DNA of 64,000 nt from Lachnospiraceae bacterium (GTDB taxonomy: Bacteria; Bacillota; Clostridia; Lachnospirales; Lachnospiraceae), in NCBI GenBank assembly GCA_018056425.1, contig JAGPFR010000007.1, positions 2,907 through 66,906 of the forward strand, in the 5' to 3' direction. The notes beneath the pieces were generated by a model. It was not told the origin of the DNA and did not search any database. It worked only from the letters and a program-made list of their open reading frames with translations. Shown in pieces: positions 12,295-64,000 of this stretch (its first letter is position 1; every line of letters starts with the position of its first letter). The translations under genes were made by a program, and so were the position numbers.

Positions 12295-12861
12295 TTACAC
12301 CTCGAGGTAGTTTCTGAGCATTTTTCTGCCCTCCGGAGTAAGGATGGATTCAGGATGGAACTGAACTCCGTATACCTTAAATTCTTTATGCTCAACAGCC
12401 ATTACTTCTCCGTCATCCGTCTTTGCAGTTACTTTAAGGCAGTCCGGCATTGTGTTTTCATCAGCAGCAAGGGAATGATACCTTGCAACTTCCGTTGTCT
12501 TTCCAAACCCTTTAAACAGAGCGGATTCATTATCGAGAGTTACTATGGAACTCTTTCCGTGCATAAGTGTCTTGGCATAGGTTACCACAGCACCGAATGC
12601 TGCACAGATCGACTGGTGTCCGAGACAAACTCCGAGAATGGGAATCTCACCGGAAAGCTCTTTGACAACATCGATGCATACTCCGGCATCCTCGGGTCTT
12701 CCCGGACCGGGACTTAAGATAATGTGAGAAGGCTTCATCTGCCTGATCTCGCTGACCGTATAGGCATCATTTCTTATGACACGAATGTCGGGATTGATCT
12801 CACCTACAAGCTGGAACAGATTATATGAAAAGCTGTCATAATTATCTATAAGAAGAATCAT
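12295..12861 (-). CDS. trpG: Anthranilate synthase component II (glutamine amidotransferase)
   Basis: IDNYDSF, ILSPGPGRP, GVCLGHQ, RYHSL, QFHPES; follows trpE. Confidence 0.95.
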   Translation of the reverse strand: MILLIDNYDSFSYNLFQLVGEINPDIRVIRNDAYTVSEIRQMKPSHIILSPGPGRPEDAGVCIDVVKELSGEIPILGVCLGHQSICAAFGAVVTYAKTLMHGKSSIVTLDNESALFKGFGKTTEVARYHSLAADENTMPDCLKVTAKTDDGEVMAVEHKEFKVYGVQFHPESILTPEGRKMLRNYLEV

Positions 12862-12862
12862 C

Positions 12863-14311
12863 TTACACCTCCGAAGCCTGTGTGATGGCCTTAATAACCG
12901 CAGCTGCTTTGTTGATGCACTCGGTAAACTCGGACTCCGGTACGGAATCTGCCACGATCCCCGCTCCGCTTCTTACGAAGACCTTACCCTTCTTTTTATA
13001 TGCAAGTCTTATAGAGATGCAGGTATCAAGATTTCCGGTAAAGTCGATGTATCCTATGGCGCCGCCATATATGCCTCTCTTATTACCTTCAAGTTCATCG
13101 ATAAGTTCGCATGCCCTGATCTTGGGAGCACCGGAAAGCGTACCTGCGGGAAGGACCGCACCGATCGCTGACATTGCATCCTCGCCTTCTCTTATCTCAC
13201 CTCTTACCGTGGATCCGATATGCATTACATGTGAGAAGAACTGGACTTCACGAAGCTTTTCAACTTCGACGGTTCCGAATTTAGAGATCCTTCCGATATC
13301 GTTTCTTCCGAGATCCACGAGCATGTTGTGCTCAGCAAGCTCCTTGGGATCTGCGAGGAGATCTTCGACAAGCGCTTTATCCTCCTCTTCATCCTTACCG
13401 CGCTTTCTCGTACCTGCAAGAGGGAATGTATGAAGCACACCGTCCTGAAGCTTTACAAGTGTCTCGGGTGAAGCACCCGCAAGCTCAAGATCATTGGAGC
13501 TGAAGTAGAACATATAGGGTGAAGGATTGATCGTTCTGAGCATCCTGTATGTATTAAGAAGAGATCCTTCAAAAGGAGCACTGAGCTTATTGGATAGAAC
13601 GATCTGGAATATATCCCCCTCAACAATGTGATGCTTTGCTTTTTCGACCATTTCGCAATATGCATCTTTATCGAATACGGGTGTGAATTCTCCCATTGCT
13701 CTGCCCGATGTATTTTTACACATCTCACCGTTTTCGATAAGATCTTTTAACTTAGCAAGTTCTTCCTGCGCCCTTTTATACTCTGCTTCGATATCATTTA
13801 AGTGAATATTTACGATGATGATGATCTTCTGTTTGAGATGATCGAATGCGATAACCTTATCAAAGAGCATCAGATCGATATCGTTGAACTGTTCTTCATC
13901 TTCTTCTGTAAGATGGAGGGATTTTTCGGCATACTTGATGTAATCGTATGCAAAATATCCTACAAGTCCGCCGGTAAAAGGAGGAAGTGAAGAAACCTTT
14001 GGACTTCTGTAACGTGAAAGAAGTTCCCTGATATGCTTTTCGGGACAATCCGTTTCAAAACAGTCATCACCGATCTTCATCCTGCCGTTAAGACATGTGA
14101 TCTCAAGCTTGGGATCAAAACCAAGGAATGTATATCTGCCCCAGTTGTCATTGTCCTTCGCAGATTCCAGAAGATAGCAGTGATCAGATACATTCTTAAG
14201 TATTCTGAGAACCTGTATCGGCGTTCTCATATCGGAAAGCATCTCGCAGCTTACCGGAGCGATGTCATATTTTCCCTGATCGTTAAGAACTTTTAATTCT
14301 TCAATAGTCAT
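12863..14311 (-). CDS. trpE: Anthranilate synthase component I
   Basis: LLES, GDIFQIVLS, NPSPY, KELAEHNMLVDLGRND, PAGTLSGAPK; start at ATG 14311 behind GGAGG; Trp T-box upstream. Confidence 0.95.
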   Translation of the reverse strand: MTIEELKVLNDQGKYDIAPVSCEMLSDMRTPIQVLRILKNVSDHCYLLESAKDNDNWGRYTFLGFDPKLEITCLNGRMKIGDDCFETDCPEKHIRELLSRYRSPKVSSLPPFTGGLVGYFAYDYIKYAEKSLHLTEEDEEQFNDIDLMLFDKVIAFDHLKQKIIIIVNIHLNDIEAEYKRAQEELAKLKDLIENGEMCKNTSGRAMGEFTPVFDKDAYCEMVEKAKHHIVEGDIFQIVLSNKLSAPFEGSLLNTYRMLRTINPSPYMFYFSSNDLELAGASPETLVKLQDGVLHTFPLAGTRKRGKDEEEDKALVEDLLADPKELAEHNMLVDLGRNDIGRISKFGTVEVEKLREVQFFSHVMHIGSTVRGEIREGEDAMSAIGAVLPAGTLSGAPKIRACELIDELEGNKRGIYGGAIGYIDFTGNLDTCISIRLAYKKKGKVFVRSGAGIVADSVPESEFTECINKAAAVIKAITQASEV

Positions 14312-14326
14312 ATGCTTTCCTCCAAA

Positions 14327-14580
14327 CAAAAAATCCCTGACAGTACGGTTATACTGTCAGGGACGAATCAGTTAATTCGCGGTGCCACCCTGCTTCATGG
14401 TTTGACCCATGCTCTCGCGGGATACCTTCATATCCCCGGCAACTAACGTATGCCTTACGTCATGGTATTTCCTCCATGCCCTCCGAAGTCCATTCACAAA
14501 AGCCTTTACTGTCCGGATCCCACCACCCCGGGCTCTCTCTGAGCAAGCATCCTTTGCTACTCCTCTTCGTCATCGGTTTC
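14327..14580 (-). ncRNA. T-box riboswitch with Trp (UGG) specifier
   Basis: Stem I with AGAGAG and GGUGG loop elements, specifier GAA-UGG at 14495-14490, T-box GGGUGGCACCGCG at 14390-14378, 12-bp terminator stem at 14334-14363 with U-tract. Confidence 0.93.
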
Positions 14581-14639
14581 TATGTGATTTTATTCAGAAT
14601 AATACATGTCGAAACTCTTTGCAATCTTTTTGGGAAAAA

Positions 14640-59513: not shown

Positions 59514-61805
59514 TTATCTTGTTACTTTACCGTTTACAAACGCGATCTCGGCTGCGAGCGTATCGGGAACCTTCTGACCGGATGCAACGATTTTCTTTTC
59601 GAGAGTCTCGAGACGATGAAGTCTCTGAGCCTTTTTGATATTGCTTCTGTCGATTATCTCGGCATAGATCGGGTTTGCCTTGATCTTAGCCGCAAGCACC
59701 TGATCGAAAGGACAATATGTATAGAGGATCTGTCTTGCGACTTTGTTAAGTCTGGGAGATCCGTTTCCTTCATACAGAACCCAGAGAGTATAGTCCCTTA
59801 TGAACATTTCCTTGAAACTGTTCTTGGCTCTCTGAAGCGAAGACTTGATCTTCTCTTTGATCTCAGCGGACAGATCTCTGTTCTTGCGGTAGAACTGAAC
59901 ATAATCGAAATAATCACTGGTGAGTGAATGATCGCTGACATCATTCCATCTCGCACCCTGTATTCTCTTGCAAAGTTCCCATCTGAAATCACCGGTAAGC
60001 CTGATCACGGTACCGAGAAGATCCTCTGCATGGAATATTGAAAGCGCCATTCTTGCGGAAGATGTTCTGAGTTTTCCCTCGATCTCCTGCCACATAACGG
60101 CTCTGGTTCCCATGTTGGGCATAAGGATGAAATCGGGAAGATACTCTACATGGATCGATTCCTTACCCATTACCTCATGGTTTTCCTTGTCCAAGGTCTC
60201 ACGGTAATAAGCAGAATAGTCGATCTTTCTTACCTGATCCAAAGCTTGGGATATCTTATCGAGATCCACAAGACAGTTTTCGGGATCCTTCATACAGGTA
60301 CTGTCCATGAAAACGGGACAGAATGTCGTGATCCTTCCATAGGTAACCTTGTTGGCATTTCTGAAGAAATTATCAAGTTCGAAATTAGCCTTTGCAACGC
60401 CGTCTGAAAGTCTCTTCTTTTCCTCGGCGGCATCTATCTTATTCTGAACCTTTAACTTGTGGATCGTATCGGTGTAATCGGTATCGAATTCATCGCGGCT
60501 CGGATCTTTTCTGCCTTCATAGATAGCCTTAAGCCAGTCGTAGAAAGTATATAATCCGGCGAATGAATGATCAGCCATCGAGGAAGCAAGCTTAGCAAGA
60601 TATGCAGTATTCTTCCTGCCCGCAAGCACTTCGTCGGCATATCCGAAATACAGGAACATAAGAACCGGAAGTGGCGGAGTCTTCTCAAGCGATTTGAAAA
60701 ATGCCGCTTTGTAAACAACGTAGAATTCCTGAGCTATATGTCTTCTCAGGGTTGAAACATCATCGTCGATTGATTCGGGATCGTCTACATTTCGAAGATC
60801 TATCACATGAGTCTTAAAGTCTGTGATCTTCTCTGAATCATCATCGAGGAAGTCAATGATCTTATCGAGTGAATTCTCGAGCTCCTCCATGGGAATGACG
60901 CTTTCAACACTTTCTTCAGCCTCATCCTCTCCGGCATCCTCGGGAATGTTATCTGCCTTGTCTGCAAATTCATCGATACGATTTTTATAAATATCCTGAT
61001 CAAGACCGACCTCGTCATAGAAAGACTCTTCTATGCGCGTGATGATCTTTCTGAGTTCGAACATCTGGGGGCTGCCCTCTTTAAGCCTGAAGAAAAGCTG
61101 CGTCAGATACGCATAGAGATCCTTTCCGTCCGGCTTAAAATACAGATTTCCGAGCTCCTGTCTGAATGAGTAATAGTTATCAAGAAGAGAATATGCTTTT
61201 CTTGAATCAAGGCTGCCCTTTCTGACCATGCCCATGGTTACGGACAGATCGGAGATGACATTCTTGCCTGTCTCTGACTGATAGAGCTTCATAAGACCTG
61301 CGTAATAATCCGCAAGCCAGGTGTCGGAAGTTTCTTCCATCATATCGGTATCAAGATCCGAAGCCTCGCTCAGATCCATTGCCTTGATGCGGAACTTGCT
61401 GCACATATCCTTATAAAGTTCTATGTCTTTGAGAAGTTTCTGATACAGATCTCCGGTATGAATCTCTGAAACCTGACATTGGCCCACGAGACCCGTGATC
61501 TGTTTGAAAAGAGAACAAAGAGATACTCTCGCAAAATCATTATGCTGTGAAAAGAGCATCTCAAGATTTTCAAGATTGGTGTAGGGATAGGGAACAACAA
61601 CAGCATCGGAAACAGCTTTGTATCCGAGGAAATGAACCTCATTAACAACCTCGGTGATGCCGATGACATCACCTCTTTCGAGCATCATCGCACCGCCGGG
61701 ATAAACAGCGCATACACGTCCCGAGATCACCAGACCCAGGGACGTCATTGCACTGCCTGCTGCTACTATTGTCTGTCCTCTTGTATAGCTTTTGTTATCA
61801 GCCAT
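59514..61805 (-). CDS. Protein with an N-terminal cNMP-binding-like domain and a large helical C-terminal domain
   Basis: GQTIVAAG...LVISGRV...LERGDVIG jelly-roll pattern; start overlaps the thrS stop. Confidence 0.75.
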   Translation of the reverse strand: MADNKSYTRGQTIVAAGSAMTSLGLVISGRVCAVYPGGAMMLERGDVIGITEVVNEVHFLGYKAVSDAVVVPYPYTNLENLEMLFSQHNDFARVSLCSLFKQITGLVGQCQVSEIHTGDLYQKLLKDIELYKDMCSKFRIKAMDLSEASDLDTDMMEETSDTWLADYYAGLMKLYQSETGKNVISDLSVTMGMVRKGSLDSRKAYSLLDNYYSFRQELGNLYFKPDGKDLYAYLTQLFFRLKEGSPQMFELRKIITRIEESFYDEVGLDQDIYKNRIDEFADKADNIPEDAGEDEAEESVESVIPMEELENSLDKIIDFLDDDSEKITDFKTHVIDLRNVDDPESIDDDVSTLRRHIAQEFYVVYKAAFFKSLEKTPPLPVLMFLYFGYADEVLAGRKNTAYLAKLASSMADHSFAGLYTFYDWLKAIYEGRKDPSRDEFDTDYTDTIHKLKVQNKIDAAEEKKRLSDGVAKANFELDNFFRNANKVTYGRITTFCPVFMDSTCMKDPENCLVDLDKISQALDQVRKIDYSAYYRETLDKENHEVMGKESIHVEYLPDFILMPNMGTRAVMWQEIEGKLRTSSARMALSIFHAEDLLGTVIRLTGDFRWELCKRIQGARWNDVSDHSLTSDYFDYVQFYRKNRDLSAEIKEKIKSSLQRAKNSFKEMFIRDYTLWVLYEGNGSPRLNKVARQILYTYCPFDQVLAAKIKANPIYAEIIDRSNIKKAQRLHRLETLEKKIVASGQKVPDTLAAEIAFVNGKVTR

Positions 61806-63654
61806 TTATCTGTCCGTCAAGTTCCTGTGCTTTGCTTTCGTTAAGCTTCTTACAGCTTTCTACAAATACATCAACGGGTACATTGTGGAGCTGCTCTTTC
61901 TGTCCTCTTACGGTGATTGAAAGAGTTCCGGACTCTTTTTCCTTATCTCCGATAACTACGATATAAGGATCCTTCATGGTCTTGAAGAACTTGATCTTCT
62001 CGTTCATATTCTTGTCGGCATAATCTGCTTCTACACGGATACCGACTGCCTCGAGCTTATCCTGAAGTTCTTTGGTGAAATCGTTATGCTCCGGCTTGAT
62101 GGGAACAAGAGCGACCTGATAAGGGGAGATCCAGAAGGGGAAAGCTCCCTTGAAGTTCTCGATGATGATTCCTATGAATCTCTCGAATGAACCGAAGATT
62201 GCTCTGTGTATTACTATAGGCTGTGACATGCTTCCGTCAGCATCCTGATAGGTAAGTCCGAAGTTATGAGGAAGCTGGAAGTCAAGCTGGATGGTTCCGC
62301 ACTGCCATTCTCTTCCGAGAGCGTCCTTCATCTGAAGGTCGATCTTGGGTCCGTAGAATGCGCCGTCGCCTTCGTTGATCTCGTATCCGCCCTCGCCGTA
62401 TTTCTTGTCGAGGATCTTCTTAAGCGCTGCCTCGGCCTTGTCCCAAGTCTCGATCTCACCCATGAAATCTTCTGGTCTGGTGGAGAGCTCCGCTCTGTAT
62501 GTTACACCGAAGGTGGAATAGATCTGATCAGCAATCTCCATGATATCTGCGATCTCTGATTCGATCTGGTCTTCCATTACGAATGTATGATCATCGTCCT
62601 GACGGAATTCCTGTACACGGAAGAGTCCGTTCATCTGTCCGGATTTCTCCTTACGGTGTACAAGGCCCACCTCGTTGTAACGGATGGGAAGTTCCTTGTA
62701 AGAGTGAATGGTTCTCTTATAAGCATTCATGGCATTGGGACAGCTCATGGGCTTTGCCGCCATGGTATCGTCATCATCCTGATCGTATACGGGATTAAGT
62801 GTAACCTCGGATACGGATCCGTCTTCCTGAGGGATCTGAGCCTTGGCATCGATATTGCCGAGTACTCCGGGAACGATGAACATATTGTTTACATAGTGAG
62901 CCCAGTGTCCGCTGATAAGCCAGAGCTTCTTGTTATTGATAATGGGAGTCTTGATCTCCTGATATCCGTGCTTATCATGAATCTCTCTCCAGAACTCCAT
63001 GAGAGTTCTGTAAAGTCTCCATCCTCTGGGAAGCCAGTAAGGCATTCCGGGTGCAGATTCACTGAACATAAACAGATCAAGCTTGGGTCCGAGTTTCTTA
63101 TGGTCTCTTTCCATAGCCTCTCTGATCATATTGAGATGTGCCTTGAGTTCATCTTTGCTAGGGAATGCATAGACATAGATTCTCTGCATAACATCCCTTT
63201 TCTGGTCACCTCTCCAGTAAGCTGCGGACGCACTTCTTACTTTGAAGGCCACACCCATAAGATCTCTTGAGTTCTCTACATGAGGTCCGCGGCACAGATC
63301 CACATAATCATCACCGGTGTAATAGATGGTGAGCTTTTCATCTTCGGGAAGATCGTTAATGATCTCGGTCTTGAACTTCTGATCCTTGAACATTTCGAGA
63401 GCGTCGGCTTTTCCGATCTCCTCCCTTCTCCAGTCCTCTTTTCTCTTGATTATCTCGTTCATCTTATTCTCGATGATCTGATAATCCTCCTCCGTGACCG
63501 CACGGGGAAGTACGAAATCATAGTAGCATCCGTCGGAAATCTGAGGTCCGATGGCATACTGCACATTTTCTTTTCCGTAGATTTCGATGACTGCTTTTGC
63601 CAGAACGTGGGCAATAGAATGACGATAGAGACTTAAAAACATTTCCTGATCCAT
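61798..63654 (-). CDS. thrS: Threonine--tRNA ligase, lacking the N-terminal TGS domain
   Basis: RHSIAH and DLCRGPH editing domain, DHKKLG, KPMSCP, FRVQEFRQDD, EGDGAFYGPKID, IHRAIFGSFERF; start ATG 63654 after GAAAGGAG. Confidence 0.98.
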   Translation of the reverse strand: MDQEMFLSLYRHSIAHVLAKAVIEIYGKENVQYAIGPQISDGCYYDFVLPRAVTEEDYQIIENKMNEIIKRKEDWRREEIGKADALEMFKDQKFKTEIINDLPEDEKLTIYYTGDDYVDLCRGPHVENSRDLMGVAFKVRSASAAYWRGDQKRDVMQRIYVYAFPSKDELKAHLNMIREAMERDHKKLGPKLDLFMFSESAPGMPYWLPRGWRLYRTLMEFWREIHDKHGYQEIKTPIINNKKLWLISGHWAHYVNNMFIVPGVLGNIDAKAQIPQEDGSVSEVTLNPVYDQDDDDTMAAKPMSCPNAMNAYKRTIHSYKELPIRYNEVGLVHRKEKSGQMNGLFRVQEFRQDDDHTFVMEDQIESEIADIMEIADQIYSTFGVTYRAELSTRPEDFMGEIETWDKAEAALKKILDKKYGEGGYEINEGDGAFYGPKIDLQMKDALGREWQCGTIQLDFQLPHNFGLTYQDADGSMSQPIVIHRAIFGSFERFIGIIIENFKGAFPFWISPYQVALVPIKPEHNDFTKELQDKLEAVGIRVEADYADKNMNEKIKFFKTMKDPYIVVIGDKEKESGTLSITVRGQKEQLHNVPVDVFVESCKKLNESKAQELDGQING

Positions 63655-63678
63655 AATACTTTTTTCTCCTTTCATGCG

Positions 63679-63771
63679 TCCTGCTACCGGCAGGAATTCG
63701 CTTAAAACAAATAGGGCAAGCCTTTACAGAGGCTTACCCTATATTCTATAACGATTGTTTGGCATTAGCAA
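63679..63771 (-). promoter_or_regulatory. thrS promoter and leader with two hairpins
   Basis: TTGCTA-17-TAGAAT (63771-63743); hairpin 63711-63742 (loop CUGUAA); hairpin 63679-63695 (loop CCGGUAG). Confidence 0.6.
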
Positions 63772-63792
63772 GGCAAATTGCCTTTAAATGCT

Positions 63793-64000
63793 TTATTTTT
63801 CGGAAGTTTCAGGTGCTGATGATTTCTTACCGAAAGAATGCGACAGTTTGACCAGAATTGCTATAACCCCGGCGGCAAGCAGTACCGCAATTGCCGCATA
63901 TCCGGCTTTCTTGAGTCTTTCATCGGGCATCTGGGCGATCGCATACATGGCAATGGGTGAATCCATGCCAAGCTGGGCGTAACTTCCCTCGGCGGTAAAA
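63793..64000 (-). CDS. 3' end of a protein with a C-terminal membrane anchor, 5'-truncated by the window edge
   Basis: ...SPIAMYAIAQMPDERLKKAGYAAIAVLLAAGVIAILVKLSHSFGKKSSAPETSEK*; hydrophobic helix followed by a basic tail. Confidence 0.7.
   Translation of the reverse strand, partial: FTAEGSYAQLGMDSPIAMYAIAQMPDERLKKAGYAAIAVLLAAGVIAILVKLSHSFGKKSSAPETSEK

Follow-up and report, generated by a model that had tools for sequence, protein, structure and literature searches.

The threonyl-tRNA synthetase (ThrRS) gene, thrS, in a 64,000 nucleotide stretch of DNA from a rumen Lachnospiraceae bacterium (contig JAGPFR010000007.1 of assembly GCA_018056425.1; the whole stretch is hereafter called the window) is preceded by two hairpins. 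The one nearer the gene, the proximal hairpin, is by comparison of leaders from many relatives a conserved and covarying RNA motif that is specific to thrS. We consider with moderate confidence that this hairpin is a cis-regulatory thrS operator, probably a one-arm mimic of the anticodon arm of tRNA-Thr through which ThrRS would repress its own translation. This reading is favored because the motif is conserved, covarying and confined to thrS, keeps two bases equivalent to G35 and U36 of the anticodon invariant, lies next to the Shine-Dalgarno (SD) sequence and is exclusive of T-boxes. Autoregulation of E. coli ThrRS by tRNA mimicry is textbook knowledge, and thrS of Firmicutes is taken to be T-box controlled. 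An earlier reading of this DNA (the original prediction) had proposed an operator of the E. coli type with two anticodon-like hairpins, and all of the sequence features that it described (the hairpins, their linker, the SD spacing, the position of GGU and a promoter) are present where it had placed them. The features that carry the argument are as follows.

61798..63654, minus strand: thrS, encoding a bacterial-type ThrRS of 618 amino acids (aa) without the N1/TGS domain
63676..63701, minus strand: extended proximal hairpin, in which GCG (63701..63699) pairs with CGC (63678..63676), followed by an AAU bulge and then the core stem
63695..63679, minus strand: proximal hairpin core, UCCUG (63695..63691) paired with CAGGA (63683..63679)
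63684..63690, minus strand: proximal loop CCGGUAG, candidate mimic of the tRNA-Thr anticodon loop
63666..63673, minus strand: Shine-Dalgarno sequence GAAAGGAG, located 5 nt (CGCAU) 3' of the proximal hairpin core

Conservation and covariation of the proximal hairpin

Leaders from the lineage of TGS-less ThrRS enzymes were collected from genomes and metagenomes, and the proximal hairpin is present in 72 of these 151 leaders and in 44 of the 75 that come from genomes. Its carriers are the genus of the window, Butyrivibrio and uncultured rumen Lachnospiraceae. Two of the 72 (L061 and L190) are probable false positives and were omitted from the hairpin alignment. In the clade to which the window belongs, represented by 10 close relatives whose ThrRS is 94-98% identical, a 28-nt block AAGCGAAU(U/G)CCUGCCGGUAGCAGGACGC varies at 1 of its 28 positions as compared with 82% of 198 four-fold degenerate thrS sites in the same relatives (P ~2e-19, with sites taken as independent and neutral). 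By this measure the proximal block is under purifying selection within the clade.

Beyond this clade the stem changes while its pairing is retained. For the 8 stem pairs in 35 distinct sequences, 87.1% of the cells hold standard pairs versus 55.3% in shuffles, and the covariation score is 0.808 versus 0.217, with none of 500 shuffles scoring as high. A control in which the 3' partners were slid gave a score of at most 0.18, and an earlier pair count on 22 sequences agreed with the result from 35. The three innermost pairs, which lie beside C32-G38 (numbered as in tRNA, see below), are formed in all 35 sequences with 4-5 pair types each. For example, stems that present the same loop just 5' of the SD in other clades are CUCUG/CAGAG (L048), UUGCGA/UCGCGA (L054) and UUACAC/GUGUGA (L064), those in Butyrivibrio include GCUGUAC/GUAUAGC, GCUGAGC/GCUUAGC and GCUGCGC/GCGUAGC, and metagenome leaders contain GGGG/CCCC (L181), GCCGGCGC/GCGCCGG (L184) and CUCUG/CAGAG with the loop ACCGUAG (L188). 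The original prediction had proposed aligning the leaders of relatives for stem covariation and conserved NGU loops, and such an alignment gives a proximal stem that covaries around an invariant G35 and U36. Because the arms vary while the centre is fixed, the element appears to be an RNA structure and not a DNA operator. Its placement is also constrained; the end of the loop is 19-32 nt from the AUG in 64 of the 72 leaders, and the end of the hairpin is 0-9 nt from the SD in most of them. Folding of the window's thrS leader gives z = -4.5, which is more than chance would give.

Two further observations concern individual leaders. That of Butyrivibrio sp. RGIG8880 (L092) has lost the 5' half of the hairpin together with the loop, leaving only GGGGUAGUAUGAAAGGA, which is either a natural operator deletion or an assembly artefact. 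Four metagenome thrS leaders (L155, L158, L159 and L174) are of a different kind that may represent another form of thrS control; in L158 and L174, the two that were inspected, the 3' arm of a hairpin located right after a TATAAT box pairs with the SD (e.g. CUCCGU...ACGGAGAGG).

The loop and the tRNA-Thr anticodon

In tRNA-style numbering the proximal loop reads C32 (63690), C33 (63689), G34 (63688), G35 (63687), U36 (63686), A37 (63685) and G38 (63684), which places GGU at -34..-32 relative to the thrS AUG. The genome's own tRNA-Thr(GGU) has the anticodon arm UCGCC-UUGGUAA-GGCGG. Base-specific anticodon contacts of bacterial ThrRS are made with positions 35 and 36 (PMC4756836). Among the 35 distinct hairpin sequences no change is seen at C33, G35 or U36; position 34 is mostly G, with A in L104 and L181 and C in L188, whereas A or U occupies position 37. 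Thus the fixed and free positions of the loop match those predicted for recognition by ThrRS, which reads 35 and 36, as the threonine isoacceptors vary at position 34. Positions 32 and 38 form C-G in 32 sequences, G-C in 2 (the independent types L091/L116 and L197/L208) and A.G in 1. The original prediction described a 5-bp stem with a 7-nt loop; seven nucleotides do lie between the covarying stems, whereas energy minimization closes C32-G38 and leaves a 5-nt loop, CGGUA in the window.

Several other roles for the loop were considered and set aside. Mimicry of the tRNA D-loop (CGGUAG resembles the D-loop UCGGUAG) was rejected because A or C can replace the first G and because the motif is confined to thrS, and a kissing dimer through the self-complementary CCGG was rejected given the existence of CCAG and ACCG variants. 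Inspection of the tRNA-Thr genes and of the early thrS coding region revealed no complement to CCGGUAG. Switching by pairing of the SD with UUCCU of the 5' arm is possible in the window's own clade only and was discarded as a mechanism common to all carriers, the Butyrivibrio arms not being complementary to their SDs.

Specificity of the motif for thrS

A covariance model of the motif (R1, with E-values that are rough) has a single match in the window, of 40.6 bits at 63658..63699, and scores at most 11.8 bits elsewhere in it. Applied to 401 evenly sampled Lachnospirales genomes, R1 gave seven matches of at least 33 bits, all of which are directly 5' of thrS and belong to the window's genus and Butyrivibrio; matches scoring up to 31 bits lie away from thrS. 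Across about 400 genomes from Clostridia as a whole, only those same loci pass E<=0.001. For genome sets larger than 40, scoring was limited to 16 candidates per genome under strict filters, which makes the motif's frequency in Lachnospirales a lower bound. The window's genome contains 9 look-alike sites with such a loop on a stem of at least 5 bp, about the number estimated by chance, and the thrS copy is the only one of them in a 5' untranslated region (5'UTR).

No relevant Rfam family was returned for the window leader (E<=10), for 12 hairpin-bearing leaders or for the E. coli thrS leader, and an Rfam match to ylbH (17 bits, E = 0.5) is noise. The hairpin is presented as a candidate RNA family absent from Rfam. 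Searches of the literature, most subscription journals aside, turned up no account of this hairpin or of thrS anticodon mimicry beyond Proteobacteria. The proS and glyQS leaders of the window's genome contain nothing similar to an anticodon mimic.

The distal hairpin as a terminator

The second hairpin must be viewed together with the promoter and the end of the upstream gene.

63793..64000, minus strand: 3' end of the upstream gene, stop codon TAA at 63795..63793, no Pfam match
63766..63771, minus strand: predicted -35 hexamer TTGCTA of the thrS promoter, sigma-70-like
63743..63748, minus strand: predicted -10 hexamer TAGAAT of the thrS promoter, 17-nt spacer to the -35 hexamer
63704..63742, minus strand: distal hairpin and T-tract, composed of a 13-bp stem (63742..63711) with loop CUGUAA and of TTGTTTT (63710..63704)
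63710..63696, minus strand: linker of 15 nt between the two hairpins

Judged from its pattern of change among relatives, the distal hairpin appears to be the intrinsic (Rho-independent) terminator that serves the gene upstream, and the conserved thrS promoter overlaps it. The spacer between the upstream stop codon and ATG 63654 comprises 138 nt on the minus strand, and the 13-bp stem with TTGTTTT sits 51 nt past the stop codon on the same strand. Both the stem and the T-tract are maintained in the 10 close relatives through compensatory changes, examples being GGGUAAGCC/GGCUUGCCC, AGGACAAGUCCC/GGGGCUUGUCUU and AAAGACAAGC/GCUUGUCUUU. The loop, 6 nt long in the window, is different in every close relative with loss of UGU (CUGUAA in the window; AUUUAUAAU, CUGAGA, UUCUUUUGA, AUUCC, AUUUUUU and others in the relatives). 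With a maintained stem and T-tract around a variable loop, the distal hairpin behaves as a terminator, and the window therefore does not have the two-arm architecture of E. coli that the original prediction had assigned to it. A role of the distal hairpin as a second (UGU) anticodon mimic was rejected on account of this lack of loop conservation in ten relatives. Of the proposal that both loops imitate Thr anticodons, what survives is the proximal loop, conserved and specific to thrS. The prediction was to be abandoned if the distal hairpin were only a terminator and the proximal hairpin were also not conserved; the distal hairpin does look like a terminator and the proximal hairpin is conserved.

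The thrS promoter TTGCTA-17-TAGAAT spans 63771..63743, and neither the TTGC of its -35 hexamer nor a block GTTATA(G/A)AATA varies across the 10 close relatives. Transcription of thrS is predicted to start at ~63737..63735, within the 5' arm of the distal hairpin. As this hairpin begins 1 nt after the -10 hexamer, the thrS mRNA would contain only part of it; from the predicted start the mRNA retains a 5'-terminal stem of at most 8 bp, with CCUA between the stem and the U-tract. The thrS transcript would thus not be expected to terminate at the residual stem, which may instead protect the 5' end of the mRNA. In L048 the proximal hairpin directly follows the promoter and there is no distal hairpin.

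The ThrRS enzyme

The assembly contains a single copy of thrS. Its start codon, ATG 63654, is kept as M-x-x-E eight residues ahead of YRHS in ~70 relatives; an in-frame ATG at 63675, the start given in the open reading frame (ORF) list, was rejected as it is missing in L040 and L045. The original prediction was right in describing a TGS-less enzyme that keeps the N2 editing domain. The protein begins at this domain and contains the domains tRNA_SAD, class II core and HGTP_anticodon, with an N-terminus that aligns from residue ~62 of E. coli ThrRS and from residue ~75 of PDB 6vu9. The editing site is intact (H12, H16 and CRGPH, with H73, H77, C182 and H186 conserved on alignment) and the zinc ligands C334, H385 and H511 are all retained. 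The records closest to the window come from rumen Lachnospiraceae, including the isolates P6A3 and AC2028, and the TGS-less ThrRS lineage also takes in Butyrivibrio, Catonella, Moryella and many uncultured rumen taxa.

Two side observations were made on the enzyme and its gene. Residues 262-292 (~62779..62871, minus strand) form an acidic insertion of ~30 aa, VPGVLGNIDAKAQIPQEDGSVSEVTLNPVYDQDDDD, which sits between two stretches that are alignable to solved ThrRS structures and is not covered by any ThrRS in the PDB. Additionally, the window's own GTDB genus (genomes G001-G024; loci L026-L035) contains at least four kinds of thrS: the window's type with 94-98% identity, which bears the hairpin; a second kind with ~75% identity, whose leaders are bare or different; a third with ~48% identity and a T-box (L026, 92 bits); and a fourth encoding 598 aa with ~39% identity and a short leader without a T-box. 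The presence of at least four kinds within one genus suggests repeated replacement of thrS.

T-boxes and the distribution of leader types

The claim that thrS of the window is without a T-box was borne out, there being no Rfam match at E<=10 in 63000..64000 and no occurrence of the motif AGGGTGGNACCGCG. The genome (a 91%-complete assembly) has 4 T-box matches elsewhere and none at thrS. The best of these lies in the window at 14356..14582 on the minus strand (111.7 bits), directly upstream of a trpE-like ORF (12863..14329), and is probably a Trp T-box because this ORF and then a trpG-like ORF (12295..12861) are directly downstream.

Among the 75 genome leaders of the ThrRS lineage, 44 have the hairpin, 9 a T-box motif, 22 neither and none both. 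Four of the T-boxes are backed by Rfam (L107, 93 bits; L110, 78; L101, 62; L113, 43), and the other five leaders of this class contain AGGGTGGAACC(G/A)CGG and a terminator with an Rfam score below E = 1e-5. Twenty leaders of the class with neither element gave no Rfam family at gathering score. On a ThrRS tree from a quick maximum-likelihood search, with a midpoint root for drawing only, the hairpin occurs in at least four subclades (the window's own clade; L047/L048; L054/L064/L068 with L100; and Butyrivibrio, where 26 of 27 leaders have it) and the leader label needs six changes. These subclades are interleaved with T-box and bare leaders, the T-box leaders L110 and L107 being at the base of the Butyrivibrio clade. 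The hairpin may be ancestral with repeated loss, may have travelled with the gene or may have had several origins; that all share the loop CCGGU(A/U)G speaks for common descent or strong functional constraint.

Proposed mechanism and alternative explanations

We infer the following course of ThrRS binding, tRNA competition and ribosome occlusion. The thrS gene would be transcribed from the TTGCTA-17-TAGAAT promoter to give a leader of ~83 nt, in which a remnant of the terminator stem comes first and is followed by a hairpin with the loop C-C-(G/A/C)-G-U-(A/U)-G, 0-9 nt before the SD. The anticodon-binding domain of free ThrRS would bind this loop, recognizing G(-33) and U(-32) in the manner of G35 and U36 in tRNA-Thr. 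In most leaders 0-9 nt separate the hairpin from the SD, so the loop-bound ThrRS dimer would keep the 30S subunit off the adjacent SD. Competition of tRNA-Thr for ThrRS would lift repression, and ThrRS synthesis would then track the ratio of tRNA-Thr to ThrRS. A wider account, on which our own judgment is evenly divided, is that Lachnospiraceae with a TGS-less ThrRS replaced the Thr T-box with a minimal one-hairpin operator, in which ThrRS takes CNGUW for an anticodon and blocks the SD of its own mRNA; that this operator travels with the gene or was reached repeatedly; and that a few Butyrivibrio added a second arm, thereby rebuilding the E. coli design.

A number of observations weigh against a mimic that is bound by ThrRS. 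The swap of C-G to G-C across sequences suggests that positions 32 and 38 form a Watson-Crick pair, probably leaving a pentaloop C-N-G-U-W as folding also predicts, and the loop has C33 where anticodon loops have the universal U33. Where E. coli ThrRS contacts positions 32-34, 37 and 38, its residues are replaced here (D549 by P or V, N575 by D, and R583 and R589 by K), and these replacements are identical in lineages with and without the hairpin, which argues that there is no hairpin-specific adaptation of the enzyme; an alignment that was examined for ThrRS residues peculiar to hairpin-bearing lineages showed none. There is one arm in the window as opposed to the two used by the E. coli ThrRS dimer, and work on E. 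coli places ribosome exclusion in the N-terminal region of ThrRS, of which N1 is missing here. Finally, in 2 of the 44 genome leaders (L073 and L100) the hairpin is 45-70 nt from the AUG.

The unlike loop, with its C33 and covarying 32-38 pair, and the sameness of the anticodon-domain residues with and without the hairpin fit an appreciably less probable alternative, namely that the hairpin is a regulatory RNA specific to thrS but working independently of ThrRS. Its C-G-closed pentaloop C-N-G-U-W could then be a target for another protein, a small RNA or an RNase, or the hairpin could simply govern mRNA stability or SD accessibility. However, a general factor of this kind would be expected to act at other genes as well and all strong matches in ~800 genomes are at thrS; the invariant bases are the very two that ThrRS reads in the anticodon, with 34 and 37 variable; and the complementary partner sought by inspection in the early coding region and the genome's tRNA-Thr genes was not seen. 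A two-arm operator of the E. coli style, with UGU of the distal CUGUAA bound by the other ThrRS subunit, is very improbable. The window does possess two hairpins with a 15-nt linker, and L104 (UUGGUAG), L109 and L172 (UUGGUUG) and L112 (CCAGUAG) do have an additional, suitable loop farther upstream, but the distal loop varies in all 10 close relatives with loss of UGU while its stem and T-tract are kept by compensation, it is 6 nt long, the thrS mRNA holds only part of this hairpin, and L048 is without it. Still less credible are the notions that a dimeric transcription factor binds the inverted repeat as its DNA operator and that the hairpin is neutral or due to chance. A palindrome near a promoter invites the former, yet the arms covary freely around 5-7 fixed central nucleotides, the opposite of a protein-read DNA palindrome, and the repeat lies downstream of the predicted transcription start at a distance that is fixed to the SD and not to the promoter. 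Chance is excluded by the outcome of 0 in 500 shuffles, by matches at thrS only and by a conservation P of ~2e-19. We therefore retain the one-arm ThrRS operator as the best explanation of the proximal hairpin, with the moderate confidence expressed at the outset.

Neighboring features of the locus

The upstream gene encodes a product of 605 aa with a signal-like N-terminal segment and a C-terminal membrane anchor, for which a Pfam search returned no family. Between its stop codon and the -10 hexamer, overlapping the -35 hexamer, is a nested small hairpin GCAUU..AAGGCA-AUU-UGCCUU..AAUGC at 63791..63762 on the minus strand; a similar one is present in the closest relatives (L037-L039 and L114) and not in L040-L045. 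Downstream, a 763-aa ORF (59514..61805, minus strand) shares 8 nt with the 3' end of thrS, including the stop codon, and is probably co-transcribed with thrS because of this overlap. Its sole Pfam match is a weak, sub-threshold cNMP_binding at the N-terminus. The genes infC-rpmI-rplT are not downstream of thrS at this locus.

Comparison with known systems

The nearest known counterpart is the thrS operator of E. coli, established by the Springer, Romby and Moras laboratories (PDB 1KOG). In the leader of strain MG1655, domain 2 of this operator is GUGAUC(U)-UUCGUGU-(G)GGUCAC, with CGU at -33..-31 and the SD UAAGGA at -13..-8. Domains 2 and 4 are its two anticodon-like arms (PMC9976931), and the operator splits the ribosome-binding site (PMC3858243). 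The window shares with it a 5'UTR stem-loop just upstream of the SD that has an invariant G and U of the kind that ThrRS reads in the anticodon, and the NGU is at a nearly equal distance (GGU at -34..-32, with the core of the SD at about -14..-11); here the hairpin stands in place of a T-box. The two differ in the loop, which is UUCGUGU in E. coli and CCGGU(A/U)G here, where position 33 is C and C32 probably pairs with G38. They also differ in the host, here a Firmicute whose ThrRS is without the N1/TGS domain. R1 has no match to the E. coli thrS leader at E<=10, and there is no relationship at the sequence level.

A few leaders of the Butyrivibrio type (L104, L109, L112 and L172) have the two-arm layout found in E. 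coli, with a second anticodon-like arm ~45-60 nt upstream of the proximal hairpin. This arm is GCAC-UUGGUAG-GUGC in L104, GCAC-UUGGUUG-GUGU with loop UUGGUUG in L109 and L172, and AAUC-CCAGUAG-GAUU in L112. Should the proposed reading of the proximal hairpin be true, it would provide a second, independent example of the tRNA-mimic logic at thrS, now in a Gram-positive lineage, and the combination of one arm and an enzyme without N1 would allow a natural test of the components that the E. coli mechanism cannot do without. Cultured carriers of the hairpin are Lachnospiraceae bacterium P6A3 and AC2028, Butyrivibrio hungatei and B. proteoclasticus.

With the T-box (RF00230) the hairpin shares the gene and the presumed purpose of coupling ThrRS supply to the status of tRNA-Thr. 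The leader of the window is without Stem I, specifier codon, T-box sequence and antiterminator, and, unlike a T-box, its loop cannot pair with the tRNA-Thr anticodon because it contains GGU in the anticodon sense and not the codon ACC. A further likeness, by description, is to the mRNA mimics of yeast AspRS and other aminoacyl-tRNA synthetases (PMC6542539, PMC9956033), where translation is regulated by a synthetase that recognizes an anticodon-like hairpin of an mRNA; these systems are eukaryotic and involve different enzymes and mRNA positions.

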